Source: Escherichia coli (GTDB lineage Bacteria; Pseudomonadota; Gammaproteobacteria; Enterobacterales; Enterobacteriaceae). From it: a DNA stretch of 64,000 bases. Shown in pieces: positions 33,144 to 64,000 of this stretch (position 1 is its first letter; each line of letters starts with the position of its first letter). The translations under genes and the position numbers were made by a program. Location: assembly GCF_044324875.1 (NCBI RefSeq), contig NZ_CP172187.1. The stretch is one strand, 5' to 3'. The notes below the pieces were generated by a model. That model searched no databases. It was given only the letters and a program-made list of their open reading frames with translations, and had not been told where the DNA came from.

Positions 33144-33772
33144 GATGCCGGGGGCTGATTGCCCTGCTGATATGGGGGCAGAGTGTGGCCGCCGCCGATC
33201 TTGGTACCTGGGGCGATCTGTGGCCGGTAAATGAGCCGGACATGCTGACGGTGATCATGCAGCGCCTGACGGCACTGGAGCAGTCCGGTGAGATGGGCCG
33301 GAAAATGGATGCCTTTAAGGAGCGGGTGATCCGCAACAGTCTGCGGCCCCCTGCCGTGCCCGGTATCGGACGCACGGAGAAATACGGCAGCCGGTTGTTT
33401 GACCCGTCCGTCAGACTGGCTGCGGATATCCGGGATAACGAAGGGCGGGTGTTTGCCCGTCAGGGTGAAGTGATGAATCCATTGCAGTATGTTCCTTTTA
33501 ACCAGACGCTGTATTTCATCAATGGCGATGATCCGGCGCAGGTGGCCTGGATGAAACGCCAGACGCCGCCCACACTGGAGAGCAAAATTATCCTCGTGCA
33601 GGGCAGTATCCCGGAGACGCAGAAGTCTCTGGACAACCGTGTTTACTTTGACCAGAACGGTGTGCTCTGCCAGCGCCTCGGCATTGATCAGGTCCCGGCA
33701 CGGGTGAGCGCCGTTCCCGGCGATCGCTTCCTGAAGGTGGAATTTATTCCGGCAGAGGAGGGCAGAAAATGA
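33140..33772 (+). CDS. traW: TraW
   Basis: ORF-track frame 33026..33772; internal ATG at 33140 gives a 210-aa signal-peptide protein overlapping the trbI stop. Confidence 0.8.
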   Translation: MRCRGLIALLIWGQSVAAADLGTWGDLWPVNEPDMLTVIMQRLTALEQSGEMGRKMDAFKERVIRNSLRPPAVPGIGRTEKYGSRLFDPSVRLAADIRDNEGRVFARQGEVMNPLQYVPFNQTLYFINGDDPAQVAWMKRQTPPTLESKIILVQGSIPETQKSLDNRVYFDQNGVLCQRLGIDQVPARVSAVPGDRFLKVEFIPAEEGRK

Positions 33773-34761
33773 AGCGAAGCCTGTGGCTGCTGATGTTATT
33801 CCTTCTCGCCGGTCATGTCCCTGCAGCGTCTGCGGATTCTGCCTGTGAGGGGCGTTTTGTAAACCCGATCACGGATATCTGCTGGAGCTGTATTTTCCCG
33901 CTCTCGCTGGGCAGTATCAAAGTCAGTCAGGGTAAGGTCCCCGACACGGCGAACCCGTCGATGCCCATTCAGATTTGTCCGGCACCGCCGCCGCTGTTCA
34001 GGCGTATCGGGCTGGCCATTGGTTACTGGGAGCCGATGGCGCTGACGGACGTCACCCGATCACCGGGATGCATGGTTAACCTGGGCTTCAGCCTGCCGGC
34101 TTTTGGTAAAACGGCACAGGGAACGGCGAAAAAGGATGAGAAGCAGGTGAACGGGGCGTTCTATCACGTTCACTGGTACAAATACCCGCTGACGTACTGG
34201 CTTAACATCATCACATCGCTGGGCTGTCTGGAAGGTGGTGACCTGGATATCGCTTATCTTTCTGAAATCGACCCCACCTGGACGGACAGCAGCCTGACCA
34301 CCATTCTCAATCCGGAAGCTGTCATCTTTGCCAATCCGATAGCACAGGGGGCCTGTGCAGCAGATGCCATTGCCAGCGCCTTTAATATGCCTCTCGATGT
34401 TCTGTTCTGGTGTGCCGGTTCGCAGGGCAGTATGTACCCGTTCAATGGCTGGGTGAGTAATGAGTCCAGTCCGTTGCAGTCCTCCCTGCTGGTCAGTGAA
34501 CGCATGGCGTTCAAGCTGCACCGTCAGGGCATGATTATGGAAACCATCGGGAAAAATAACGCCGTCTGTAATGAATATCCGTCCCCAATCCTGCCCAAAG
34601 AACGCTGGCGTTACCAGATGGTGAATATGTACCCGGACAGCGGACAGTGCCACCCGTTCGGGCGCAGTGTGACCCGCTGGGAGACGGGAAAAAATCCGCC
34701 CAACACAAAGAAAAACTTCGGCTACCTGATGTGGCGTAAACGTAACTGTGTGTTCCTGTAA
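33769..34761 (+). CDS. traU: TraU
   Basis: 330 aa with signal peptide. Confidence 0.9.
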   Translation: MKRSLWLLMLFLLAGHVPAASADSACEGRFVNPITDICWSCIFPLSLGSIKVSQGKVPDTANPSMPIQICPAPPPLFRRIGLAIGYWEPMALTDVTRSPGCMVNLGFSLPAFGKTAQGTAKKDEKQVNGAFYHVHWYKYPLTYWLNIITSLGCLEGGDLDIAYLSEIDPTWTDSSLTTILNPEAVIFANPIAQGACAADAIASAFNMPLDVLFWCAGSQGSMYPFNGWVSNESSPLQSSLLVSERMAFKLHRQGMIMETIGKNNAVCNEYPSPILPKERWRYQMVNMYPDSGQCHPFGRSVTRWETGKNPPNTKKNFGYLMWRKRNCVFL

Positions 34762-34789: not shown

Positions 34790-35101
34790 ATGAAGGTGGG
34801 GGTAATAAGAAATAAGCACGCAGAGGACTTCAGAAAAATATGTCTTCTGTTTATCCGGTTAACGAGCAATGTATTAAAACTGTTTCCTTTTGCTATGGTG
34901 ATGTGCTCTGTGGTGTGGTTTTATTTTTGCCCTGAACATATTCTCTCAGACATTGTTAACGACTGGCACGATGCAGATACACTGGAAAAAATACGGATTG
35001 TCAGACTGTATCTGAAGACGTCTTTTATTCTGACAGTGGTGGGCGTTGTTATTTCATATCTTTCTTCAGATAAGTTTATGCCCGTTAAGCGCAGGAAATG
35101 A
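34790..35101 (+). CDS. Hypothetical membrane protein (103 aa), accessory ORF between traU and trbC
   Basis: AT-rich ORF with two predicted TM helices. Confidence 0.45.
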   Translation: MKVGVIRNKHAEDFRKICLLFIRLTSNVLKLFPFAMVMCSVVWFYFCPEHILSDIVNDWHDADTLEKIRIVRLYLKTSFILTVVGVVISYLSSDKFMPVKRRK

Positions 35102-35163: not shown

Positions 35164-35685
35164 ATGGGATTTTTCTCGTTTTTACGAAAGATAAGTAATA
35201 AAGAAAAAGGGGTGGTTATCTATGAGAAGCAGTGGTTCTCACTGCTGGAAAAGGTGAGTGCTTTTGATGAGGTCAGACAATGGGCTGAAAGTAATGGTGG
35301 AGCATATTATCCTCTGCTGGAGTGTCGTCGGCTTACAGACAGTGAAGATGTCAGGAAATCAGAGGATATACTGAACCGACTGGAGTTTATTGACAGAAGA
35401 TTTCGGGAATTCATCAGCATTATGTCTGAACATATTAATAATGATAAAACTAAATCCATGTGGGAGAGGGAATTGTCTGAATATCCACCGGAAAAAATAT
35501 ACCAGGTCCGGAGAGAGGGAGAACATCTGTCATTAAAAAATTACGGTGATGATATTACTCTGAACAGAGATACCGCCGTGGCTACGGTGCAGATTACTGT
35601 CAGCAGAAAATGCATTACTCAGGAAGAAATGGATGAATTATATGCATTGTCTGAGAGACTGAAAGAAAAGTGCGCCGGTAATTAA
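35164..35685 (+). CDS. Hypothetical protein (173 aa), accessory ORF between traU and trbC
   Basis: AT-rich ORF; no recognised motif. Confidence 0.45.
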   Translation: MGFFSFLRKISNKEKGVVIYEKQWFSLLEKVSAFDEVRQWAESNGGAYYPLLECRRLTDSEDVRKSEDILNRLEFIDRRFREFISIMSEHINNDKTKSMWERELSEYPPEKIYQVRREGEHLSLKNYGDDITLNRDTAVATVQITVSRKCITQEEMDELYALSERLKEKCAGN

Positions 35686-35711
35686 ATTATATCACTGTGC
35701 CGGGAGATGAT

Positions 35712-36350
35712 ATGAGCCGGAAAATATTTGTACTTTTTGCCCTGACAGCAGGACTGTTTATTTCTGCCCATGCTTCGGAAAATGTGAATACACCCGAAAA
35801 CCGCCAGTTCCTGAAGCAGCAGGAAACACTGAGTCAGCAGTTACGTGAAAAACCGGACACACAGCTGCAGGCATGGGCAGAACAGCAGGTCAGGGCGAAT
35901 CCCCTTCAGCATTCCGATAACCAGTTTCTCGATGAACTGGTCCGTAAACAGCAGGCTTCGCAGGGTGATAAACCACAGCAGGGTGCCCTGTATTTTGTGT
36001 CGTTTTCCATACCCGAAGAGGGGCTGAAACGGATGCTGGGTGAAACCCGGCACTACGGTATTCCGGCCACGCTGCGGGGCATGGTGAACAACGACCTGAA
36101 GACCACCGCTGAAGCCGTGCTGTCCCTGGTGAAAGACGGCGCGACTGATGGTGTTCAGATCGACCCGACGCTGTTTTCACAGTACGGCATTCGCAGCGTT
36201 CCGGCCCTGGTGGTGTTCTGCAGCCAGGGGCACGACATCATCCGGGGAAACCTGCGCGTCAGGCAGGCGCTGGAGAAAGTGGCCGCCACAGGAGACTGCC
36301 GGCAGGTGGCTCAGGGACTGCTGGACGGCACCGGGGATAAATCGCAATAA
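35712..36350 (+). CDS. trbC: TrbC
   Basis: ORF-track frame 35697..36350; ATG at 35712 gives a 212-aa protein with signal peptide (MSRKIFVLFALTAGLFISAHA). Confidence 0.85.
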   Translation: MSRKIFVLFALTAGLFISAHASENVNTPENRQFLKQQETLSQQLREKPDTQLQAWAEQQVRANPLQHSDNQFLDELVRKQQASQGDKPQQGALYFVSFSIPEEGLKRMLGETRHYGIPATLRGMVNNDLKTTAEAVLSLVKDGATDGVQIDPTLFSQYGIRSVPALVVFCSQGHDIIRGNLRVRQALEKVAATGDCRQVAQGLLDGTGDKSQ

Positions 36351-51347: not shown

Positions 51348-53546
51348 ATGAGTTTTAACGCAAAGGATATGACCCAGGGCGGTCAGATTGCGTCCATGCG
51401 TATCCGCATGTTCAGCCAGATCGCCAATATCATGCTTTACTGCCTGTTTATTTTTTTCTGGATACTCGTTGGTCTGGTTTTATGGGTAAAAATAAGCTGG
51501 CAGACGTTTGTGAACGGCTGTATTTACTGGTGGTGTACCACGCTGGAAGGCATGCGGGATTTAATCAAGTCCCAGCCAGTATATGAGATTCAGTATTACG
51601 GCAAAACCTTCCGGATGAACGCTGCCCAGGTACTGCATGATAAATATATGATCTGGTGCGGTGAGCAGCTATGGTCCGCATTCGTTCTGGCGTCTGTCGT
51701 GGCCCTGGTTATTTGCCTGATCACCTTCTTTGTTGTCTCCTGGATTCTGGGGCGTCAGGGTAAACAACAGAGCGAAAATGAAGTCACAGGTGGTCGTCAG
51801 CTGACAGACAATCCGAAAGACGTTGCCCGGATGCTGAAAAAAGACGGCAAGGACTCCGATATCCGGATTGGCGACCTGCCGATTATCCGGGATTCCGAAA
51901 TCCAGAACTTCTGTCTGCACGGCACGGTCGGGGCCGGTAAGTCGGAGGTTATCCGTCGTCTGGCCAACTACGCCCGTCAGCGCGGTGATATGGTGGTGAT
52001 TTATGACCGTTCAGGGGAATTTGTTAAAAGTTACTATGATCCCTCCATCGATAAAATCCTGAATCCGCTGGATGCCCGCTGTGCCGCATGGGATTTGTGG
52101 AAGGAGTGCCTGACACAGCCGGATTTTGATAATACCGCAAATACTCTGATCCCTATGGGTACAAAAGAGGACCCGTTCTGGCAGGGTTCAGGACGTACCA
52201 TTTTTGCGGAAGCGGCGTACCTGATGCGTAATGACCCCAACCGCAGCTACAGCAAACTGGTGGACACACTGCTTTCCATCAAAATTGAAAAACTGCGTAC
52301 CTTCCTGCGTAATTCACCGGCAGCCAACCTGGTGGAAGAGAAAATTGAGAAAACGGCGATTTCCATCCGTGCTGTGCTGACCAACTACGTGAAAGCCATC
52401 CGTTACCTGCAGGGGATTGAGCATAACGGTGAGTCTTTTACCATCCGTGACTGGATGCGTGGTGTCCGGGAAGATCAGAAAAACGGCTGGCTGTTTATCT
52501 CGTCGAATGCCGACACCCATGCCTCCCTGAAGCCGGTGATCTCCATGTGGCTGTCCATTGCCATTCGTGGTCTGCTGGCAATGGGAGAAAACCGTAACCG
52601 TCGTGTGTGGTTTTTCTGTGACGAGTTACCCACGTTACACAAACTGCCGGACCTGGTGGAGATCCTGCCGGAAGCCCGTAAGTTCGGAGGCTGTTATGTG
52701 TTTGGTATCCAGTCCTATGCCCAGCTGGAAGATATCTACGGTGAGAAAGCGGCGGCCACGCTGTTTGACGTCATGAACACCCGTGCTTTTTTCCGTTCCC
52801 CGAGCCATAAGATTGCAGAGTTCGCTGCCGGTGAGATTGGTGAGAAAGAGCACCTGAAAGCCAGCGAGCAGTATTCCTACGGTGCTGACCCGGTACGTGA
52901 CGGGGTATCGACCGGTAAGGATATGGAGCGTCAGACACTGGTCAGTTATTCCGACATTCAGTCTCTGCCGGATCTGACCTGCTATGTCACTCTGCCCGGA
53001 CCGTATCCGGCAGTAAAACTCTCCCTGAAATATCAGGCACGACCGAAGGTCGCTCCGGAGTTTATTCCGCGTGACATCAACCCGGAAATGGAGAACCGTC
53101 TGAGTGCCGTACTTGCTGCAAGGGAAGCAGAAGGTCGCCAGATGGCCAGCCTCTTCGAACCGGAGGTTGCCTCCGGAGAAGGCGTGACTCAGGCTGAACA
53201 GCCACAACAGCCACAACAGCCACAACAGCCACAACAGCCACAACAGCCACAACAGCCACAACAGCCAGTGTCTTCTGTCATGAATGATAAGAAGTCAGAT
53301 GCAGGTGTGAGTGTTCCGGCAGGGGGGATCGAGCAGGAGCTGAAAATGAAACCGGAAGAAGAGATGGAACAGCAACTGCCACCCGGGATCAGTGAATCCG
53401 GTGAAGTGGTGGATATGGCCGCTTATGAGGCATGGCAACAGGAAAATCATCCGGACATCCAGCAGCAGATGCAGCGTCGTGAAGAGGTGAACATTAATGT
53501 GCACCGGGAGCGCGGGGAGGATGTTGAGCCGGGAGATGATTTCTGA
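51348..53546 (+). CDS. traD: TraD, type IV coupling protein
   Basis: ORF-track frame 51168..53546; true start [22 protein letters not shown] at 51348; Walker A GTVGAGKS; matches F TraD from memory. Confidence 0.95.
53199..53261 (+). repeat. 9-bp tandem repeat (CAGCCACAA)x7 encoding the TraD C-terminal (QQP)n tract
   Basis: Counted directly in the sequence. Confidence 0.9.
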
Positions 53547-56500
53547 TGTTGAGTTTTAGCGTTGTTAAATCGGCAGGCAGTGCCGGAAACTATTACACCG
53601 ACAAGGATAATTACTATGTGCTGGGTAGCATGGGAGAACGCTGGGCCGGTCAGGGGGCTGAACAGCTTGGGCTGCAGGGCAGCGTCGATAAGGATGTTTT
53701 TACCCGTCTTCTGGAGGGCAGGCTGCCGGACGGGGCGGATTTAAGCCGCATGCAGGATGGCAGTAATAAGCATCGTCCCGGCTACGACCTGACCTTCTCC
53801 GCCCCCAAAAGTGTCTCCATGATGGCCATGCTCGGGGGGGATAAACGTCTTATTGATGCACATAACCAGGCTGTGGATTTTGCTGTCCGTCAGGTGGAGG
53901 CGCTGGCTTCCACACGGGTGATGACGGACGGACAGTCAGAAACGGTGCTGACCGGTAATCTGGTGATGGCACTGTTTAACCATGACACCAGTCGCGATCA
54001 GGACCCACAGTTACACACGCATGTGGTGGTGGCTAATGTCACGCAGCATAACGGCGAGTGGAAGACACTGAGCAGTGACAAAGTGGGGAAAACCGGATTT
54101 TCCGAGAACGTGCTCGCGAACCGGATTGCGTTCGGGAAAATATATCAGAGTGAGTTACGTCAGCGCGTTGAGGCGCTGGGTTATGAAACCGAAGTGGTCG
54201 GTAAGCACGGTATGTGGGAGATGCCGGGCGTACCGGTGGAGGCCTTTTCCGGACGCTCACAGGCTATCCGGGAGGCCGTCGGGGAAGATGCCTCGCTGAA
54301 ATCCCGGGATGTGGCGGCACTGGATACGCGAAAATCCAAACAGCACGTCGATCCGGAAATCAGAATGGCTGAATGGATGCAGACGCTGAAGGAAACCGGG
54401 TTCGACATCCGGGCATATCGTGACGCGGCGGATCAGCGTGCGGAGACCCGCACGCAGGCGCCCGGGGCTGTTTCACAGGAGGGGCCGGATGTGCAGCAGG
54501 CGGTGACACAGGCCATTGCCGGATTAAGTGAACGAAAAGTGCAGTTCACGTATACGGACGTGCTGGCCAGGACGGTCGGCATACTGCCGCCGGAAAATGG
54601 TGTGATTGAACGGGCACGCGCCGGTATCGATGAGGCCATCAGCCGTGAGCAGCTTGTCCCCCTCGATCGTGAGAAGGGGCTGTTCACGTCCGGGATTCAT
54701 GTGCTCGATGAGCTGTCAGTCCGGGCACTCAGTCGTGACATCATGAAACAGAACCGGGTGACCGTACATCCGGAGAAAAGTGTCCCCCGGACGGCCGGTT
54801 ACAGCGATGCCGTCAGTGTTCTGGCACAGGATCGCCCGTCGCTGGCCATTGTGTCCGGGCAGGGCGGTGCAGCCGGGCAGCGTGAGCGGGTGGCTGAACT
54901 GGTCATGATGGCCCGGGAGCAGGGGCGGGAGGTGCAGATTATCGCTGCTGACCGTCGCTCGCAGATGAACCTGAAGCAGGATGAACGGCTGTCCGGTGAG
55001 CTGATAACCGGACGTCGTCAGCTGCAGGAGGGCATGGTCTTCACGCCGGGCAGTACCGTTATCGTTGACCAGGGCGAAAAACTCTCCCTGAAAGAGACGT
55101 TAACCCTGCTGGACGGTGCCGCACGTCATAACGTACAGGTCCTGATAACCGACAGCGGGCAGCGAACCGGTACAGGCAGTGCGCTGATGGCCATGAAGGA
55201 TGCCGGGGTGAACACGTATCGCTGGCAGGGCGGAGAACAGCGACCGGCCACCATCATCAGTGAACCGGACCGGAATGTCCGCTATGACCGGCTGGCCGGA
55301 GATTTTGCGGCCAGCGTGAAAGCCGGAGAAGAGAGCGTGGCACAGGTCAGCGGGGTACGGGAACAGGCCATACTGACACAGGCCATTCGCAGTGAGCTGA
55401 AAACACAGGGCGTGCTCGGACACCCGGAGGTGACCATGACCGCCCTGTCACCGGTCTGGCTGGACAGCCGGAGCCGTTATCTGCGGGATATGTACCGACC
55501 GGGGATGGTGATGGAGCAGTGGAACCCGGAGACACGCAGTCATGACCGCTATGTTATCGACCGGGTGACGGCGCAGAGTCACAGCCTGACCCTGCGGGAT
55601 GCGCAGGGCGAAACGCAGGTGGTGCGTATTTCCTCCCTGGACAGCAGCTGGTCGCTGTTCCGGCCGGAAAAAATGCCGGTGGCAGACGGCGAGCGACTGA
55701 GGGTGACAGGGAAAATTCCCGGACTCCGCGTCTCCGGCGGTGACCGCCTGCAGGTGGCATCCGTCAGTGAAGATGCGATGACGGTTGTTGTGCCGGGGCG
55801 GGCTGAACCGGCCACCCTGCCTGTGGCTGATTCACCGTTCACGGCACTGAAGCTGGAGAACGGCTGGGTGGAAACGCCCGGGCATTCCGTCAGCGACAGT
55901 GCGAAGGTTTTTGCCTCCGTCACACAGATGGCAATGGACAACGCCACCCTGAACGGTCTGGCCCGCAGTGGTCGTGATGTCCGGCTGTATTCTTCACTGG
56001 ATGAAACCCGTACTGCGGAAAAACTTGCCCGCCATCCCTCCTTTACGGTGGTTTCTGAGCAGATAAAGGCGCGTGCCGGTGAGACATTGCTGGAAACCGC
56101 TATCAGTCTGCAGAAAGCCGGGCTTCACACGCCGGCACAGCAGGCTATTCATCTGGCCCTTCCTGTGCTGGAAAGTAAAAACCTGGCCTTCAGCATGGTG
56201 GACCTGCTGACAGAGGCGAAGTCGTTTGCTGCAGAAGGAACCAGTTTTACTGAACTGGGAGGGGAAATCAATGCGCAGATAAAACGCGGTGATTTACTGT
56301 ATGTGGATGTGGCAAAAGGCTATGGCACAGGCCTGCTGGTTTCCCGTGCGTCGTATGAGGCAGAAAAGAGCATTCTTCGCCATATTCTCGAAGGTAAGGA
56401 GGCGGTCACGCCGCTGATGGAGAGAGTACCTGGCGAACTCATGGAGAAACTGACATCAGGACAGCGTGCCGCCACCCGCATGATACTGGAAACGTCCGAC

Positions 56501-58816
56501 CGTTTCACGGTGGTGCAGGGCTATGCCGGTGTGGGTAAGACCACACAGTTCCGGGCGGTGATGTCAGCCGTGAACATGCTGCCGGAGAGTGAGCGTCCCC
56601 GTGTCGTTGGGCTGGGTCCCACGCACCGCGCGGTCGGGGAGATGCGCAGCGCCGGCGTGGATGCACAGACACTGGCGTCCTTTCTGCATGACACGCAGCT
56701 GCAGCAGCGCAGCGGAGAAACGCCGGATTTCAGCAACACGCTGTTCCTGCTCGATGAGAGCTCAATGGTGGGCAATACCGACATGGCACGGGCATACGCC
56801 CTGATTGCGGCCGGTGGCGGTCGTGCTGTGGCCAGCGGTGACACGGACCAGCTGCAGGCCATCGCGCCCGGTCAGCCTTTCCGTCTCCAGCAGACGCGCA
56901 GTGCTGCCGATGTGGTCATCATGAAGGAGATTGTGCGTCAGACGCCGGAACTGCGGGAGGCGGTATACAGCCTGATTAACCGGGATGTGGAAAGGGCACT
57001 GTCCGGGCTTGAGAGTGTGAAACCGTCTCAGGTTCCCCGTCAGGAGGGCGCATGGGCACCGGAGCACTCCGTGACGGAGTTCAGTCACAGCCAGGAAGCG
57101 AAACTGGCAGAAGCGCAGCAGAAGGCGATGCTGAAAGGCGAGGCTTTCCCGGATATCCCCATGACACTGTATGAAGCCATTGTCCGCGACTATACCGGCA
57201 GGACACCGGAAGCACGGGAGCAGACGCTGATTGTCACACACCTGAATGAGGACCGGCGCGTACTGAACAGCATGATTCATGATGCACGGGAAAAGGCCGG
57301 TGAGCTGGGCAAAGAGCAGGTCATGGTGCCTGTCCTGAACACAGCGAATATACGTGACGGAGAACTGCGTCGTCTCTCCACCTGGGAGAATAACCCGGAT
57401 GCCCTTGCCCTGGTGGATAGTGTGTATCACCGGATTGCCGGTATCAGCAAGGATGACGGGCTGATAACCCTGCAGGATGCGGAAGGTAACACGCGGCTGA
57501 TTTCGCCCCGGGAGGCGGTGGCTGAAGGCGTCACACTGTACACCCCGGACACCATCCGGGTGGGAACCGGTGACCGGATGCGCTTCACGAAGAGTGACCG
57601 GGAGCGCGGTTATGTGGCCAACAGCGTCTGGACGGTGACAGCGGTTTTAGGTGACAGTGTCACGTTGTCGGACGGACAGCAGACCCGGGTGATTCGCCCC
57701 GGTCAGGAGCGGGCAGAGCAACATATTGACCTGGCTTATGCCATCACCGCCCACGGTGCGCAGGGGGCAAGTGAAACCTTTGCCATCGCGCTTGAAGGCA
57801 CGGAAGGTAACCGGAAACTGATGGCAGGCTTTGAGTCAGCTTATGTAGCCCTGTCGCGTATGAAGCAGCATGTGCAGGTGTACACCGATAACCGTCAGGG
57901 CTGGACGGATGCCATCAACAATGCCGTACAGAAAGGAACTGCCCACGATGTGTTTGAACCGAAACCGGACCGGGAGGTCATGAATGCAGAGCGGCTGTTC
58001 AGTACGGCGCGGGAGCTGCGGGACGTGGCGGCAGGCCGTGCCGTTCTTCGTCAGGCGGGACTTGCCGGGGGAGACAGTCCTGCACGGTTTATTGCTCCGG
58101 GACGTAAATATCCGCAACCGTATGTGGCACTGCCGGCTTTTGACCGTAACGGCAGGTCCGCCGGTATCTGGCTGAACCCGCTGACCACGGATGACGGAAA
58201 CGGGCTGCGGGGATTCAGCGGTGAAGGCCGGGTGAAAGGCAGCGGGGATGCACAGTTTGTGGCCCTGCAGGGCAGCCGTAACGGAGAGAGCCTGCTGGCT
58301 GATAATATGCAGGATGGTGTCCGGATTGCCCGTGATAATCCTGACAGCGGTGTGGTGGTGAGAATCGCCGGTGAAGGCCGTCCGTGGAATCCCGGTGCCA
58401 TCACCGGTGGTCGCGTGTGGGGGGATATCCCGGACAACAGCGTCCAGCCGGGGGCCGGAAATGGTGAACCGGTTACAGCTGAAGTGCTGGCACAGCGGCA
58501 GGCTGAAGAGGCCATCCGCCGTGAAACGGAACGTCGCGCAGATGAAATTGTCCGTAAAATGGCAGAGAACAAACCTGACCTGCCGGATGGCAGAACAGAG
58601 CAGGCTGTCAGGGAGATTGCCGGGCAGGAGCGTGACCGGGCTGCCATAACTGAACGGGAAGCCGCGCTGCCGGAGAGTGTGCTGCGTGAATCACAACGGG
58701 AGCGGGAAGCGGTCCGGGAGGTTGCCCGGGAAAATCTGCTGCAGGAGCGTCTGCAGCAGATGGAGCGGGATATGGTCCGTGACCTGCAGAAAGAGAAAAC
58801 CCTGGGCGGAGACTGA
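53546..58816 (+). CDS. traI: TraI, relaxase-helicase
   Basis: 1756 aa; start overlaps the traD stop; matches F TraI from memory. Confidence 0.95.
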   Translation: MLSFSVVKSAGSAGNYYTDKDNYYVLGSMGERWAGQGAEQLGLQGSVDKDVFTRLLEGRLPDGADLSRMQDGSNKHRPGYDLTFSAPKSVSMMAMLGGDKRLIDAHNQAVDFAVRQVEALASTRVMTDGQSETVLTGNLVMALFNHDTSRDQDPQLHTHVVVANVTQHNGEWKTLSSDKVGKTGFSENVLANRIAFGKIYQSELRQRVEALGYETEVVGKHGMWEMPGVPVEAFSGRSQAIREAVGEDASLKSRDVAALDTRKSKQHVDPEIRMAEWMQTLKETGFDIRAYRDAADQRAETRTQAPGAVSQEGPDVQQAVTQAIAGLSERKVQFTYTDVLARTVGILPPENGVIERARAGIDEAISREQLVPLDREKGLFTSGIHVLDELSVRALSRDIMKQNRVTVHPEKSVPRTAGYSDAVSVLAQDRPSLAIVSGQGGAAGQRERVAELVMMAREQGREVQIIAADRRSQMNLKQDERLSGELITGRRQLQEGMVFTPGSTVIVDQGEKLSLKETLTLLDGAARHNVQVLITDSGQRTGTGSALMAMKDAGVNTYRWQGGEQRPATIISEPDRNVRYDRLAGDFAASVKAGEESVAQVSGVREQAILTQAIRSELKTQGVLGHPEVTMTALSPVWLDSRSRYLRDMYRPGMVMEQWNPETRSHDRYVIDRVTAQSHSLTLRDAQGETQVVRISSLDSSWSLFRPEKMPVADGERLRVTGKIPGLRVSGGDRLQVASVSEDAMTVVVPGRAEPATLPVADSPFTALKLENGWVETPGHSVSDSAKVFASVTQMAMDNATLNGLARSGRDVRLYSSLDETRTAEKLARHPSFTVVSEQIKARAGETLLETAISLQKAGLHTPAQQAIHLALPVLESKNLAFSMVDLLTEAKSFAAEGTSFTELGGEINAQIKRGDLLYVDVAKGYGTGLLVSRASYEAEKSILRHILEGKEAVTPLMERVPGELMEKLTSGQRAATRMILETSDRFTVVQGYAGVGKTTQFRAVMSAVNMLPESERPRVVGLGPTHRAVGEMRSAGVDAQTLASFLHDTQLQQRSGETPDFSNTLFLLDESSMVGNTDMARAYALIAAGGGRAVASGDTDQLQAIAPGQPFRLQQTRSAADVVIMKEIVRQTPELREAVYSLINRDVERALSGLESVKPSQVPRQEGAWAPEHSVTEFSHSQEAKLAEAQQKAMLKGEAFPDIPMTLYEAIVRDYTGRTPEAREQTLIVTHLNEDRRVLNSMIHDAREKAGELGKEQVMVPVLNTANIRDGELRRLSTWENNPDALALVDSVYHRIAGISKDDGLITLQDAEGNTRLISPREAVAEGVTLYTPDTIRVGTGDRMRFTKSDRERGYVANSVWTVTAVLGDSVTLSDGQQTRVIRPGQERAEQHIDLAYAITAHGAQGASETFAIALEGTEGNRKLMAGFESAYVALSRMKQHVQVYTDNRQGWTDAINNAVQKGTAHDVFEPKPDREVMNAERLFSTARELRDVAAGRAVLRQAGLAGGDSPARFIAPGRKYPQPYVALPAFDRNGRSAGIWLNPLTTDDGNGLRGFSGEGRVKGSGDAQFVALQGSRNGESLLADNMQDGVRIARDNPDSGVVVRIAGEGRPWNPGAITGGRVWGDIPDNSVQPGAGNGEPVTAEVLAQRQAEEAIRRETERRADEIVRKMAENKPDLPDGRTEQAVREIAGQERDRAAITEREAALPESVLRESQREREAVREVARENLLQERLQQMERDMVRDLQKEKTLGGD

Positions 58817-59636: not shown

Positions 59637-60197
59637 ATGACAGAGCAGAAGCGACCGGTACTGACACTGAAGCGGAAAACGGAAGGGGAGACGCCTGTCC
59701 GCAGCCGGAAAACCATCATCAATGTCACCACGCCACCAAAGTGGAAGGTGAAAAAGCAGAAGCTGGCCGAGAAAGCAGCCCGGGAAGCAGAGCTGGCGGC
59801 AAAAAAAGCGCAGGCCAGACAGGCACTGTCCATTTATCTGAACCTGCCCACGCTGGATGAGGCCGTGAATACCCTGAAACCCTGGTGGCCGGGATTGTTT
59901 GACGGTGACACGCCCCGGCTTCTGGCCTGCGGTATCCGGGACGTGTTACTGGAAGACGTGGCGCAGCGGAATATCCCGCTCTCGCATAAAAAACTGCGCA
60001 GGGCGCTGAAGGCCATCACCCGTTCAGAAAGCTATCTGTGTGCCATGAAAGCCGGTGCCTGCCGGTATGACACGGAAGGGTATGTGACGGAGCATATTTC
60101 TCAGGAGGAGGAAGCGTATGCGGCAGCGCGTCTGGATAAAATCCGCCGCCAGAACCGGATAAAGGCAGAACTTCAGGCCGTGCTTGATGAGAAATAA
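59637..60197 (+). CDS. finO: FinO, RNA chaperone for fertility inhibition; intact
   Basis: 186 aa, basic N-terminus; uninterrupted. Confidence 0.9.
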
Positions 60198-60327
60198 AAA
60201 AGCCTCCGTCAGAGAGAGGAGGCAGGGAAATAAGGCTTAAAGGAAATAACTTCCGTACCCAAAAGGAAATCGGTCCACTGAATTATTTAACACCATAATG
60301 CTGACGGGTTAAAGAGGAGTGATAAAG

Positions 60328-60540
60328 ATGAATGGATTCAGAAACAGTTCACGGAACGGTCAGGTCTGGCGCTGGCAGCGTGCCGGAAGCCGGGCCGTTA
60401 TTCTGGAGGTCAGTGGACGCTGGATGGAAGCGGCAGAAGCATGGCGACGGGCTGCCGGTGTTGCACCCCGGACAGACTGGCAGCAGTTTGCCCGAAAAAG
60501 GGCTGAACAATGCCACCGACGCTGCCGGGGAAGGGTGTAA
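60328..60540 (+). CDS. Hypothetical small Arg/Trp-rich protein
   Basis: Short ORF; could be spurious. Confidence 0.3.
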   Translation: MNGFRNSSRNGQVWRWQRAGSRAVILEVSGRWMEAAEAWRRAAGVAPRTDWQQFARKRAEQCHRRCRGRV

Positions 60541-60787
60541 CGAAAAAGCAGCCTTCATTACTCCAGGGATTCAGAAGGCTGAATAATGCATGAGATTTGC
60601 TTTTTTTAATATCCGGTCGGGCAGTATGACCGGACAGTTCTGAGTAGCACAGAGTTTTTTCCGTATTAAGTCGTGATTTTATATTTTGTGATTAATTTCG
60701 CAAAATAAGGTGTTATTCAGTGTGTGCTGCGATATTCAGGATTACCTGAAATACAGGTGCCATTTATCTGATATGGAGAATAATATG

Positions 60788-61246
60788 AGGAAATATATTC
60801 CACTGGTATTATTTATCTTTTCATGGCCGGTATTGTGTGCAGATATTCATGGACGGGTTGTTCGTGTACTGGACGGTGATACCATCGAGGTCATGGACTC
60901 ACGGAAGGCAGTGCGGATCAGGCTGGTAAATATTGATGCACCGGAAAGGAAACAGGATTATGGCCGGTGGTCAACGGACATGATGAAATCACTGGTTGCA
61001 GGAAAAACGGTTACCGTCACATATTTTCAGCGAGATCGTTATGGTCGTATTCTCGGGCAGGTTTATGCACCAGACGGAATGAATGTTAATCAGTTTATGG
61101 TCCGGGCCGGGGCTGCCTGGGTATATGAGCAGTACAACACAGATCCCGTGCTGCCTGTCCTTCAGAACGAAGCCAGACAACAAAAACGTGGGCTCTGGTC
61201 AGATGCTGATCCGGTTCCCCCCTGGATATGGAGACACCGTAAATAA
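60788..61246 (+). CDS. Secreted thermonuclease (SNase/micrococcal nuclease-like)
   Basis: ORF-track frame 60710..61246; internal start MRKYIPLVLFIFSWPVLCA (signal peptide); motifs VRVLDGDTIEV, RLVNIDAPE. Confidence 0.8.
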   Translation, partial: RKYIPLVLFIFSWPVLCADIHGRVVRVLDGDTIEVMDSRKAVRIRLVNIDAPERKQDYGRWSTDMMKSLVAGKTVTVTYFQRDRYGRILGQVYAPDGMNVNQFMVRAGAAWVYEQYNTDPVLPVLQNEARQQKRGLWSDADPVPPWIWRHRK

Positions 61247-61291
61247 AGCGATGGCAATCTTATCATTCATCTGTTCTCAGCGGGAATAAAA

Positions 61292-61501
61292 ATGGCGAAA
61301 ACAAAACAGGAATGGCTGTATCAGTTACGGCGATGTTCATCAGTCAATACGCTGGAAAAAATTATTCATAAAAACAGAGACAGTTTATTAAACAGTGAAC
61401 GTGAATCATTTAATTCAGCAGCAGACCACCGGTTAGCGGAATTAATCACCGGAAAGTTATATGACAGGATACCAAAAGAGATATGGAAATATGTAAGGTA
61501 A
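61292..61501 (+). CDS. Hypothetical small protein (69 aa)
   Basis: AT-rich ORF. Confidence 0.4.
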   Translation: MAKTKQEWLYQLRRCSSVNTLEKIIHKNRDSLLNSERESFNSAADHRLAELITGKLYDRIPKEIWKYVR

Positions 61502-61538
61502 TAATTCAACATAATTAATTTCCAGGAACAGATAAATA

Positions 61539-62129
61539 ATGAAGTTGATTATTTTTATTCTCATTGTTCTGATTATTGCAGCGTTACTTATCCGGATTAT
61601 CCTCAGAAGTGTAAATCAGCATTCTCCTTTGCTGATGCAGTTACATGCGGCAGGTATACGGACCGGTGATGCAGAGCGAATACTGTCCGGCGGTGAATAC
61701 TGGCAACGTCAGAAGACGCTGCTGACAGAAAGGGAAGTCAGTTTTATGAAAGGACTGTTCAGAATTGTGGATATGAAGCGGTGGTATCTGTGTCCGCAGG
61801 TACGGGTCGCGGATATCGTCCAGCTGAACGGGAATATCCGGCCACGATCACGCCAGTGGTGGCAGTTATTCAGGATGGTGTCTCAGTGGCATGTTGATGT
61901 GGTTATCGTTGAGCAGCGTTCGTTCAGTATTGTTGCAGCAGTAGAGCTGGATGATGCCAGCCATTTACGACCGGAACGCAGACGCCGGGATATTCTTCTG
62001 GAAGAGGTTCTGAGGCAGGCTGGTATTCCGTTGCTCAGAAGCCACGATGCCAGAAAACTGCTGCAGATGACCGGAGAATGGCTGAATACAACAGGGGCTG
62101 ATCAGCAGTCCCCGGAACATCGTAGCTGA
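61539..62129 (+). CDS. Membrane-anchored protein, possibly DUF2726-like
   Basis: 196 aa with N-terminal TM helix; family assignment from memory and uncertain. Confidence 0.5.
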   Translation: MKLIIFILIVLIIAALLIRIILRSVNQHSPLLMQLHAAGIRTGDAERILSGGEYWQRQKTLLTEREVSFMKGLFRIVDMKRWYLCPQVRVADIVQLNGNIRPRSRQWWQLFRMVSQWHVDVVIVEQRSFSIVAAVELDDASHLRPERRRRDILLEEVLRQAGIPLLRSHDARKLLQMTGEWLNTTGADQQSPEHRS

Positions 62130-62283
62130 CGCCTTCGCGTTGCTCAGTTGTCCAACCCCGGAAACGGGAAAAAGCAAGTTTTCCCCGCTCCCGGCGTTTC
62201 CGTAATAAAAAACGGGAAATGGTGGTCACAGAATAAATTCCGGAACTACCTGTACCCAAACTTTATATAATAAAGGTGAATAT

Positions 62284-62733
62284 ATGGAATATGATGATGT
62301 ATCAGAATTGATGATTAAGCGTGAACACAATATTCTTATTGTTGGGAATTCTGCCTCCCACATTGATAAGTTTTTTAAGGAGTATTCTATACCAAGTTCT
62401 AAATATTATGATTTCACTCAGATTAACAGTGATTCAGATGTAGAGAGAAATGAGAATGCTGTCTCTTTTATCAGGGATGCAATGAATAGTGAAGAGCTCA
62501 CAATCATTTTTAATTGCGTTGGGTGGCCTGATTTAGGTGGTGGAGCAGCAGTATCACAGTTTGCAATGATGGCCAGAAAATTTGGTAAACAACTTATTGT
62601 CGCTGTAAGTGAAAAGGATGCCATCAAATTAAAAGACAACTTTGATATTATTGGGATGTTGTCATATGGTAAAGAAAATTTTATTGCCATGAGTCATACG
62701 AAAAGCGAGTTAACTGGAGGGAAACGTCGGTAA
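62284..62733 (+). CDS. Hypothetical protein (149 aa), markedly AT-rich
   Basis: ORF with RBS AAAGGTG; Rossmann-like pattern (ILIVGNS...IIFNCVGWPDLGGGAA). Confidence 0.5.
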   Translation: MEYDDVSELMIKREHNILIVGNSASHIDKFFKEYSIPSSKYYDFTQINSDSDVERNENAVSFIRDAMNSEELTIIFNCVGWPDLGGGAAVSQFAMMARKFGKQLIVAVSEKDAIKLKDNFDIIGMLSYGKENFIAMSHTKSELTGGKRR

Positions 62734-62947
62734 CGGATTAAAAATAGATGTAAATAAAAAGCATACTTATTGGCTGGAGTGACGCCTTCGTGCTTCGGTA
62801 GTAAAAAACGGGAAATGAAGGTAATAGTCAGCAACAGGGAATGTGGTATTATCGCGGCGGGTGTCTGAGCCTTTCTGGTTCAGGCAAGACGCAGGTACCA
62901 GAAATGCGAAGACCCCACTTGTTAATCCATTAACTCGTGAGGTCTGC

Positions 62948-63154
62948 ATGAAGTACTTGAACACTACTGATTGTAGCCTCTTCCTTGCAGAGAGGTCAAA
63001 GTTTATGACGAAATATGCCCTTATCGGGTTGCTCGCCGTGTGCGCCACGGTGTTGTGTTTTTCACTGATATTCAGGGAACGGTTATGTGAACTGAATATT
63101 CACAGGGGAAATACAGTGGTGCAGGTAACTCTGGCCTACGAAGCACGGAAGTAA
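62948..63154 (+). CDS. SrnB' leader reading frame (mok analogue)
   Basis: ATG at 62948 (MKYLNTTD...) in frame with srnB. Confidence 0.5.
   Translation: MKYLNTTDCSLFLAERSKFMTKYALIGLLAVCATVLCFSLIFRERLCELNIHRGNTVVQVTLAYEARK
63005..63154 (+). CDS. srnB: SrnB/PndA-type Hok-family toxin (49 aa)
   Basis: MTKYALIGLLAVCATVLCFSLIFRERLCELNIHRGNTVVQVTLAYEARK. Confidence 0.85.
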   Translation: MTKYALIGLLAVCATVLCFSLIFRERLCELNIHRGNTVVQVTLAYEARK

Positions 63155-63437: not shown

Positions 63438-63698
63438 ATGTCGCAGATCGAAAATGCAGTAACTTCCTCACCGAAACGCATTTACAGAAAAGGTAATCCG
63501 TTAACCGGAGCCGAGAAACAACGTATATCTGTTTCCCGGAAAAAGGGGACACATAAAGCGATTAATGTTTTCATCCAGAGTGAACTCAAAGATGATTTGA
63601 CACAGCTTTGTAAAGATTCGGGCTTAACTCAAAAAGAAATGATAGAGCACTGGATTTTGAAAGAAAAAGCTGCGATGGATAATGCGAATAGAAGGTAA
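63438..63698 (+). CDS. copB: CopB/RepA2 repressor of the RepFIIA replicon
   Basis: 86-aa basic protein resembling IncFII CopB from memory (MSQ.ENAVTSS...). Confidence 0.75.
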   Translation: MSQIENAVTSSPKRIYRKGNPLTGAEKQRISVSRKKGTHKAINVFIQSELKDDLTQLCKDSGLTQKEMIEHWILKEKAAMDNANRR

Positions 63699-63933
63699 CT
63701 AAGTTACTTTCTTGAACATTTGAATTGCGGATGCTAGATTACTGATCGTTTAAGGAATTTTGTGGCTGGCCACGCCGTAAGGTGGCAGGGAACTGGTTCT
63801 GATGTGGATTTACAGGAGCCAGAAAAGTGAAAACCCCGATAATCTTCAGCAAGTTTGGCGACTAAGAGAAGATTAACGGGGCCATCTAAAAACCGTATAG
63901 CCAACAATTCAGCTATGCGGGGAGTATAGTTAT

Positions 63934-64000
63934 ATGCCCGGAAAAGTTCAAGACTTCTTTCTGTGCTCGCTCCTTCTGCGCATTGTAAGTGCAGGATGGT
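63934..64000 (+). CDS. Leader peptide (tap/repA6-like) preceding repA1; truncated by the window end
   Basis: ATG at 63934 ([22 protein letters not shown]...), about 235 nt downstream of copB, where the CopA/CopT region is expected. Confidence 0.4.

Follow-up and report, generated by a model that had tools for sequence, protein, structure and literature searches.

Does the stretch at positions 60788-62733, between finO and a srnB-type hok locus, act as a defence or competition module, or does it belong to the ordinary plasmid backbone? The original prediction leaned towards the former, reading a secreted nuclease, a membrane-anchored nuclease-related protein and a third protein of 149 amino acids as parts of one functional unit. 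Our analysis of the window (the whole 64-kb stretch of DNA examined) points elsewhere: the segment is quite likely the R100-type stretch found next to finO on a plasmid of the IncFII-like kind, assembled as a mosaic of independent cassettes and not as one system. What it carries is routine cargo for plasmid housekeeping and host adaptation and does not form a recognised defence system; the conserved trio nuc-hha-yihA consists of already known R100-type plasmid genes.

The segment holds four genes, which encode the nuclease, an Hha/RmoA protein, a DUF2726 protein and the 149-residue protein (orf149). Three of these had been listed before; all three are real and lie about where they had been placed, but the Hha/RmoA gene at 61292-61501 had been overlooked. 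The nuclease frame that had been started at 60788 is likewise real, with its true start 3 nt further out, at 60785. The G+C content of the segment is 43.7%, compared with 52.1% for the whole window and 57-60% for traI, traX and finO, in line with the earlier remark that it is more AT-rich than the tra backbone. This AT-richness is patchy, however. Gene by gene, G+C amounts to 48.5% in nuc, 36.7% in hha, 49.7% in the DUF2726 gene and 35.6% in orf149, so only hha and orf149 are clearly low, while nuc and the DUF2726 gene are close to the window mean.

The first gene, nuc (also called yigB; 60785-61246, plus strand), encodes a 153-residue protein whose SNase domain (PF00565) spans residues 44-140 (Pfam, E 1.6e-30); phmmer also matches it to thermonuclease chains in the PDB (E 2.4e-14). 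It is about 30% identical to the S. aureus nuclease, and the Ca2+-binding and catalytic residues of the two proteins align: D30/D32 (corresponding to D19/D21 in S. aureus), R46 (R35), D51 (D40), E54 (E43) and Y86/R88 (Y85/R87) are all kept. The set of Ca2+ ligands and catalytic amino acids of the S. aureus enzyme (D21, D40, R35, E43 and R87) is conserved as D32, D51, R46, E54 and R88, respectively. S. aureus T41, which contacts Ca2+ via its backbone, is replaced by A52. Unlike the S. aureus enzyme, the nuc product is encoded on a plasmid of gram-negative bacteria and has a putative signal peptide of its own: by eye, the N-terminus, MRKYIPLVLFIFSWPVLCA/D, resembles a Sec signal peptide (MRK, a hydrophobic core and LCA/D). 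Together, the Pfam match and this N-terminus agree with the earlier assignment of a secreted SNase-like nuclease, with export judged here by hydropathy and by eye rather than by a dedicated predictor. The nuc product may thus be a Sec-exported SNase-fold enzyme with a predicted intact active site and, by analogy to its family, would cut DNA or RNA in a Ca2+-dependent manner, either periplasmically or extracellularly. Among plasmid proteins, the nearest counterpart would be RP4 ParB, a Ca2+-dependent SNase-like nuclease.

The second gene, hha (or rmoA; 61292-61501, plus strand), encodes 69 amino acids that match NCBIfam NF008191 over the full length of the model (95.7 bits, cut-off 90), which places the protein in the Hha/YmoA family of H-NS co-regulators. 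We found no difference from the known members of this family (chromosomal Hha and YdgT, and RmoA of R100), and the product is an RmoA-type Hha protein as in R100. Hha-type proteins, together with host H-NS, silence AT-rich plasmid genes more tightly, transfer genes included. Among the partners of H-NS, a review names the Hha/RmoA proteins encoded on plasmids (PMC6606824). The hha gene is easily overlooked in annotation.

The third gene, yihA (61539-62129, plus strand), encodes 196 amino acids with a DUF2726 domain at residues 59-170 (PF10881, E 1.5e-21) and a secondary match to REase MTES_1575 (E 1.2e-4). DUF2726 has been placed in the PD-(D/E)XK superfamily (PMC3424549). When the yihA sequence is read by eye, the acidic and His residues D120, E137, D139 and H143 seem to fall at the positions expected of a putative Vsr/DUF559-type site. 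The N-terminus is strongly hydrophobic (Kyte-Doolittle 19-residue mean of 3.45 at residues 4-22). The domain and this candidate anchor support the earlier description of a DUF2726-like membrane protein; as for nuc, topology was judged by hydropathy and by eye, not by a dedicated predictor. We therefore picture the yihA product as a probable inner-membrane-anchored protein of the PD-(D/E)xK fold. A sequence search of the PDB for a solved relative returned nothing relevant. The name itself is a trap for annotators, as the plasmid 'yihA' is repeatedly mistaken for the chromosomal GTPase YihA or named a helicase.

Because the spacers between the three genes are short (45 nt between nuc and hha, 37 nt between hha and the DUF2726 gene) and folding of both gave no meaningful hairpin, nuc, hha and yihA are likely to be co-transcribed. 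Judged from this spacing, they probably form one transcription unit; a consensus promoter scan upstream of nuc gave nothing convincing.

Comparison with R100 (NR1) makes the backbone character of the trio apparent. Between finO and repA2, R100 carries yigA, yigB, rmoA and yihA in the same order and orientation, and its proteins are nearly identical to those of the window (152 of 153 residues for nuc, 69 of 69 for hha and 195 of 196 for yihA); only the small ANR-like ORF diverges (49 of 70). In R100, yihA is followed by the same junction sequence and then directly by repA2, whereas in the window the orf149 cassette and hok/sok lie in between. The same gene order is listed for pEntH10407 (PMC2762410) and, in part, for pS88 (PMC3438092), and sequencing papers name the trio yigB, YmoA-like and yihA without attaching a phenotype (PMC2762410, PMC3438092, PMC4794485). 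The region is 100% identical at the DNA level to pTB-nb3, and at least 5,000 PLSDB records match it. Among 5,426 complete E. coli genomes, 3,255 contain matches to trio DNA and 1,613 (~30%) contain the trio in full; 4,166 of 4,207 places are on plasmids. In short, nuc, hha and yihA are ordinary conserved genes of the finO-to-replicon backbone, the outcome that the original prediction had itself named as counting against it.

The fourth gene is rarer than the trio (615 carrier genomes with any match, 314 at ≥80%), and the genes also occur apart from each other. In L016, orf149 accompanies the nuclease, but hha and DUF2726 are missing; L014 combines hha and orf149 with two other genes; the orf149 homologues of L017 and L019 are divergent and come with PIN7 or unknown genes; and in other plasmids the same slot is occupied by PIN, NYN or aphA. 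Because the genes occur independently in other plasmids, the trio is not an obligate three-part system. Rather, the finO-to-repA2 interval is a set of interchangeable cassettes.

The fourth gene, orf149, is absent from R100; its 149-residue frame is borne out at 62284-62733 on the plus strand. Searches of Pfam, NCBIfam, PADLOC and PHROG with orf149 and its active relatives found no family and gave only short Walker-A matches, and a literature search found no paper on orf149 or on the mini P-loop ATPase family to which it is related. By contrast, hhalign aligns it with a clade of ~145-residue Walker A/B ATPases at 99.6% (E 4.4e-24). The homology, at 24-36% identity, extends over the whole length, and the proteins share their size and predicted order of strands and helices. 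This points to an origin in a family of small RecA/KaiC-like P-loop ATPases found within conjugation gene clusters. The description of orf149 as 'Rossmann-like' is right for a generic three-layer alpha/beta fold, but its homology is to the P-loop (RecA/KaiC-like ASCE) lineage, and it has neither the conserved glycine-rich loop nor the specific fold match of a Rossmann dinucleotide-binding protein. An FtsZ/tubulin-like or Toprim-like identity, suggested by the string 'ILIVGNS ... GGGAAVSQF ... LIVAV', was rejected, since homology leads to proteins with Walker A/B motifs and conservation does not extend to the GGG.

Upon alignment with these relatives, both catalytic motifs of orf149 prove to be altered. 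Where the Walker A consensus reads GxxGxGK[ST], orf149 has GNSASHID (aligned as G-NSASHID); in all nine members of the F clade, the lysine is replaced by I or V and the S/T by D, and the Walker B position reads IIFN where the active clade has LILD. Intact motifs are present in 37 of 39 members of the active clade and in none of the nine of the F clade. Having lost the lysine of Walker A and the aspartate of Walker B, orf149 is predicted to be unable to hydrolyse NTP, and is thus a putatively catalytically dead P-loop-derived protein.

Is orf149 then a decaying, functionless ATPase remnant, a pseudogene that hitch-hikes beside hok and repA2? Besides the loss of both motifs, its very low G+C would fit such a remnant, as would the window copy itself, which stops five codons sooner than most relatives. 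About half of the 615 carrier genomes hold only a truncated copy, IS1-mediated deletions among them, and the copy in L011 is frameshifted. The surviving copies argue the other way. The frame stays open at the same locus over protein identities of 58-61% in E. coli, E. albertii, Citrobacter and a metagenomic F-like plasmid, and dN/dS lies between 0.20 and 0.61 in all 15 pairs, which indicates purifying selection, though values of 0.2-0.6 are relaxed for a bacterial gene. Thirty-seven residues are invariant across the clade, including those in FNCVGW-D-G and KxLIVAV, and what has taken the place of the lost motifs is itself conserved (NSAS-x-[IV]-D and IIFN), a pattern that suggests new constraint rather than drift. 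We consider the remnant explanation unlikely. Most likely, orf149 would instead be a regulator without catalytic activity that works through binding to a partner.

For the segment as a whole, the rival explanation is a defence module in which two nucleases, the exported SNase and a DUF2726 protein anchored in the membrane, would destroy foreign DNA (from phages, competing plasmids or transformation) at the envelope, with orf149 as an accessory. Two nuclease folds with a predicted envelope location are indeed adjacent, and the slot can instead be filled by nuclease-fold proteins of the PIN, PIN7 or NYN type; these features are compatible with a role in mobile-element conflict. A comparative-genomics study also notes presumed defence proteins in which a DUF2726 REase-fold domain is fused to the N-terminal domain of AbiJ (PMC3710099). 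The only PADLOC match joins the SNase domain of nuc, and that domain only, to the candidate model C3a212 'SNc+LTD' (E 4.8e-15); PADLOC-DB v2 gave no family-level match for the four proteins, the ANR-like ORF or seven alternative slot occupants. Moreover, the trio is 99-100% identical to R100, widespread and nearly invariant, which resembles a backbone and not the turnover of defence islands, and nuc, hha, yihA and orf149 are found independently of each other. In F transfer, the finO end is also the last part of the plasmid to enter the recipient. In the searchable literature, we found no phenotype experiment on the nuclease, yihA or orf149, so that the activities proposed here follow from their families; searches on yigB, yihA, plasmid thermonuclease, EcnA, YfdA/IncI2 and pEC958 returned only annotation or expression tables and mis-annotations. 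We therefore regard a defence module as quite improbable, and to flag these very often sequenced E. coli plasmid genes as one would be a false lead.

The mosaic of independent cassettes thus remains our reading of the segment, and orf149 ties one of these cassettes to an uncurated family of mini P-loop ATPases in transfer clusters. The active relatives are plasmid proteins of ~140-165 amino acids with Walker A and B motifs, labelled 'YfdA protein' (in IncI2), 'ATP-binding protein' or, wrongly, 'sigma 54-interacting transcriptional regulator'. Their genes belong to transfer clusters of plasmids that are IncI2, IncX-like or, in some cases, IncF. Their neighbours are the coupling protein and pilN in IncI2, traU and trbC in IncF, and topB in IncX-like plasmids; they also occur between trbC and virB4 and between pilQ and pilR. 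A tblastn search with a member of the active clade matched ~975 PLSDB plasmids, a count that includes weaker matches of the orf149 type. Whereas the active proteins keep both Walker motifs and sit inside transfer clusters, orf149 has lost both, and its position between yihA and hok is not within the tra operon. Among the closest systems to the orf149 family are mini-ATPases of the KaiC/RecA superfamily that regulate secretion-type ATPases, such as archaeal FlaH.

That orf149 is a decoy of the conjugation-associated mini-ATPase, with fold and surface kept but ATP hydrolysis lost, which in co-resident or incoming IncI2, IncX or IncF plasmids poisons the active homologue or its partner (a VirB11/PilQ-type ATPase or coupling protein) strikes us as a long shot, though if true it would make orf149 a new fertility-inhibition or exclusion factor beside finO. 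As a weaker corollary, the active ~145-residue family might belong to several conjugation systems as an accessory part that has gone unrecognised. Were the active proteins such accessory factors, the dead lineage on F plasmids would lend itself naturally to probing their partners. The resistance genes CTX-M and mcr-1 travel on IncF and IncI2 plasmids, which would lend some interest to a transfer factor not recognised so far. In pT156A, the single data point on co-occurrence of the two forms, the active form is present and orf149 is absent. The 64-kb window contains no paralogue of orf149 and no active ATPase of this family elsewhere. Its traU-trbC gap is filled by two unrelated ORFs.

The orf149 gene is framed by a direct repeat at the cassette junctions. 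Copy 1 (TGACGCCTTCGCG ... TTCCGTAATAAAAAACGGGAAATGG; 62127-62231) is full and starts at the DUF2726 stop codon; copy 2 (62780-62827) lacks ~58 nt internally and lies directly upstream of the promoter-like site of hok (62825-62852, promoter scan). The original prediction had each gene followed by this module. Instead, exactly two copies exist in the whole window, after DUF2726 and after orf149, with none after the nuclease or hha, so that they bracket orf149 only. The repeat sequence also occurs after DUF2726 in R100 and before hok in L011. In this arrangement, orf149 would be a separate cassette with a split direct repeat on both sides; in every case, it apparently lies immediately before hok or repA2. 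We rejected the module as a terminator: copy 1 folds no better than shuffled sequence (z -1.0), and copy 2 folds modestly better (z -2.75) but has no T-run.

On either side, the segment is flanked by small loci. Upstream lies the ANR-like ORF 'yigA' (60319-60540, plus strand; annotated by NCBI as 70 amino acids from 60328), which scores 26.8 bits against NCBIfam ANR_neg_reg, below the cut-off of 32, and is labelled 'ANR family transcriptional regulator' in many plasmids. Its 3' end is overlapped on the minus strand by the antisense RNA AS-pc02 (Rfam RF02876; 60437-60620), which cmscan matches over the full length of the model (E 1.5e-53; 202.2 bits, where the gathering score is 40). Downstream, the srnB-type hok/mok toxin locus with its sok region (62859-63154, plus strand) is identified by Hok NCBIfam matches and by Rfam sok (93.5 bits at 62859-63015), and the corresponding locus is annotated as Hok/Gef in pTB-nb3.

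The end of the window is that of an F-like (IncFII-type) plasmid. traI (53546-58816) is followed by traX and finO (59637-60197), with a small ANR-like ORF (60319-60540) 3' of finO. Four co-directional genes come next: nuc, for an SNase-fold nuclease (60785-61246); hha, for a 69-amino-acid protein of the Hha/YmoA family (61292-61501); yihA, the DUF2726 gene (61539-62129); and orf149, for a protein of 149 amino acids (62284-62733). They precede a srnB-type hok/sok locus (about 62859-63154) and repA2/copB (63438-63698). At 63825-63954, the CopA antisense RNA is matched on the minus strand (Rfam, 99.7 bits), and the repA leader in this region carries a sub-threshold plus-strand match to the PK-repZ pseudoknot; both are expected for an IncFII replicon. 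All three genes of the original prediction are present, although its nuclease start (60788) lies 3 nt inside the true one and its list overlooked hha (NCBIfam NF008191, 95.7 bits; curated cut-off, 90 bits). Across 60600-62900, the window and E. coli plasmid pTB-nb3 (NZ_CP033634.1) show 100% identity; the annotation of pTB-nb3 names a thermonuclease family protein, Hha, a DUF2726 domain-containing protein and a hypothetical protein. On the minus strand, 60437-60620 matches the Rfam model AS-pc02 (RF02876, 'antisense to pHK01_099') over its full length at 202 bits and overlaps, in antisense, the 3' part of the ANR-like ORF. ANR and Hha place two small regulator-type proteins within one finO-downstream interval.

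Our interpretation is that the segment carries standard cargo of the R100 type. The nuclease, Hha and DUF2726 proteins match those of R100 (NC_002134.1) at 152/153, 69/69 and 195/196 residues, and in R100 the genes run finO, ANR-like, nuclease, hha, DUF2726, repA2. This arrangement recurs in the gene table of pEntH10407, where Hha is called 'YmoA' and the DUF2726 protein is mis-called 'Superfamily I DNA/RNA helicase' (PMC2762410), and pS88 carries yigA and a 'putative nuclease YigB' between finO and repA2 (PMC3438092). Among 5,426 complete E. coli genomes, 3,255 match DNA of this trio and 1,613 hold all of it, almost always on plasmids; at least 5,000 PLSDB records match the segment. The cluster is thus ordinary and already known as annotation. 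The cluster had been proposed to be accessory rather than backbone; the trio's R100 identity and its presence in 1,613 genomes mark these three instead as ordinary conserved finO-to-replicon genes. Our literature search found no paper giving nuc, hha or the DUF2726 gene a phenotype. The plasmid name yihA clashes with that of the chromosomal GTPase YihA, and one paper mixes up the two (PMC4794485); GTPase and helicase labels both misfit the DUF2726 domain.

The finO-to-repA2 interval is a mosaic rather than one system. R100 carries the trio alone, lacking orf149 and hok, whereas the window and pTB-nb3 carry the trio, orf149 and hok. In pRb3 (locus L016) the slot holds the nuclease, a 72-aa ORF, orf149 and hok, and in an E. 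albertii plasmid (L014) hha, two unrelated genes, orf149 and hok. F-like plasmids from Citrobacter and a metagenome (L017, L019) have orf149 homologues (~60% identity) alongside PIN7 or unknown genes; other plasmids have PIN, NYN or aphA, or an ANR-like ORF and hok alone. A large plasmid class retains only the 3' half of orf149, its matches covering nt 282-531 of a 531-nt query (window 62240-62770), that is, window 62521-62770. In p123 (L010:2627-3560), the sole member of this class examined, IS1 deleted the stretch from nuc codon ~18 through mid-orf149. An E. coli 2013C-4282 plasmid (L011:3500-3900) has a divergent, apparently frameshifted orf149 homologue (~68% DNA identity; this type occurs in ~154 PLSDB records) directly 3' of the nuclease gene, with neither hha nor DUF2726.

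Base composition varies along the segment. The region is AT-rich as a mean (43.7% GC, against 52.1% for the window and 57-60% for traI, traX and finO), but nuc (48.5%) and the DUF2726 gene (49.7%) are individually unremarkable; the low value traces to hha (36.7%), orf149 (35.6%) and the spacer that precedes nuc (37.7%). A repeat thought to follow each gene has exactly two copies within the 64-kb window: one at 62127-62231, beginning at the DUF2726 stop codon, and one at 62780-62827, 3' of orf149 and missing ~58 internal nt. No meaningful structure was found in the spacers after nuc (45 nt) and hha (37 nt). The junction sequence lies 3' of DUF2726 in both R100 and the window, lies 5' of hok in L011 and brackets orf149 in the window, a placement compatible with cassette gain or loss by recombination there.

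Searches of Pfam, NCBIfam, PADLOC and PHROG with orf149 found no family. Its close relatives (58-95% identity), on plasmids of E. coli, Shigella, Salmonella, Klebsiella and Citrobacter, are all 'hypothetical'. An exhaustive phmmer search reached more distant relatives, ~140-165 aa long and 24-36% identical (best E 8.9e-11), in which Walker A (GxTGSGK[ST]) and Walker B (LILD) are both perfect. Profile-profile comparison joins the two clades across 129 columns (99.6% probability, E 4.4e-24), which places the supposedly 'Rossmann-like' protein with Walker A/B P-loop proteins and not with dinucleotide binders. In an alignment of 48 sequences, 37/39 members of the active clade keep both motifs, whereas all 9 of the F-plasmid clade replace Walker A by G-NSAS-x-[I/V]-D and Walker B by IIFN. 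Judged by these replacements, orf149 belongs to a coherent branch of a P-loop family in which catalysis has been lost. This branch remains under constraint: 37 residues are invariant across the clade, and dN/dS is 0.20-0.61 in 15/15 pairwise comparisons. That orf149 is a dead remnant is unlikely, given this purifying selection and the conservation of the replacement residues at the lost motifs. We favor a non-catalytic protein of P-loop descent that was acquired separately and could act only through binding. Some orf149 match occurs in 615 complete E. coli genomes and at least 80% of the gene in 314; in roughly half of the E. coli genomes with orf149 DNA, the only copy is truncated. The window allele stops 5 codons short of most relatives, with a TAA stop at 62728-62733 where most have TAY (Tyr) and 5 further codons (…RRYRIKN).

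The nuclease has a clear SNase fold (Pfam E 1.6e-30) and would by default be expected to be an active Ca2+-dependent enzyme, because it keeps D30/D32, R46, D51, E54 and Y86/R88, aligned with D19/D21, R35, D40, E43 and Y85/R87 of the S. aureus nuclease. Its N-terminus (MRK, hydrophobic core, LCA|D) looks, on inspection of the sequence, like a Sec signal peptide, and the product may be an exported non-specific nuclease. R100 rmoA reportedly influences conjugation. The DUF2726 protein is strongly hydrophobic at residues 4-22 (Kyte-Doolittle 3.45), followed by its domain (E 1.5e-21); a restriction-endonuclease-fold family also matches, less strongly. DUF2726 has been placed in the PD-(D/E)XK superfamily (PMC3424549), and the product may be a membrane-anchored nuclease-fold protein. 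Plasmid Hha/RmoA proteins are H-NS partners (PMC6606824), and Hha would co-silence AT-rich plasmid genes with host H-NS, plausibly including hha and orf149. Tight spacing and the lack of hairpins suggest a single nuc-hha-yihA operon; a consensus promoter scan was unhelpful on this point. The original prediction had raised a defence or competition module, here an envelope nuclease system, and the domain types are the one point in its favor. We consider it improbable: neither the four proteins nor seven alternative slot occupants match a PADLOC family (only a domain-level SNase match was returned), the trio are common R100 genes, and the genes form a mosaic.

What is worth keeping is the link from orf149 to an undescribed small-ATPase family tied to conjugation clusters. 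All contexts examined for the active relatives are conjugative plasmids. The relatives lie between the coupling protein and pilN in an IncI2 plasmid (pCTX-M-15, L012:4965-5483, labelled 'YfdA protein'), between pilQ and pilR in a thin-pilus operon, between traU and trbC in an IncFII plasmid (pT156A, L013:5001-5465), between trbC/virB2 and virB4, and next to the plasmid topoisomerase gene topB in IncX-like contigs; other compared loci of the family are L004:1271-1753, L007:8001-8480, L006:8001-8456 and L002:8001-8456. One active-clade member matched ~975 PLSDB plasmids (tblastn), mostly ~60 kb, a count that includes orf149-type copies on IncF plasmids as its weakest matches. Labels also include 'ATP-binding protein' and the mislabel 'sigma 54-interacting transcriptional regulator'. 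A structural model (pLDDT 91.9) has a RecA/KaiC/FlaH-like core. The active relatives form an uncurated family of ~140-165-aa P-loop ATPases of IncI2, IncF and IncX-like plasmids. That orf149 is a decoy interfering with the active mini-ATPase or its partner in competing plasmids is highly improbable; if true, it would have a fertility-inhibition-like role next to finO.

The gap between traU (33769-34761) and trbC (35697-36350) is a second variable slot, since its contents in pT156A differ from those of the window. The window has two ORFs there with no assigned function, 34790-35101 (103 aa, hydrophobic) and 35164-35685 (173 aa); pT156A has the active Walker A/B homologue of orf149 and a protein that shares 31% identity with the window's 173-aa ORF.
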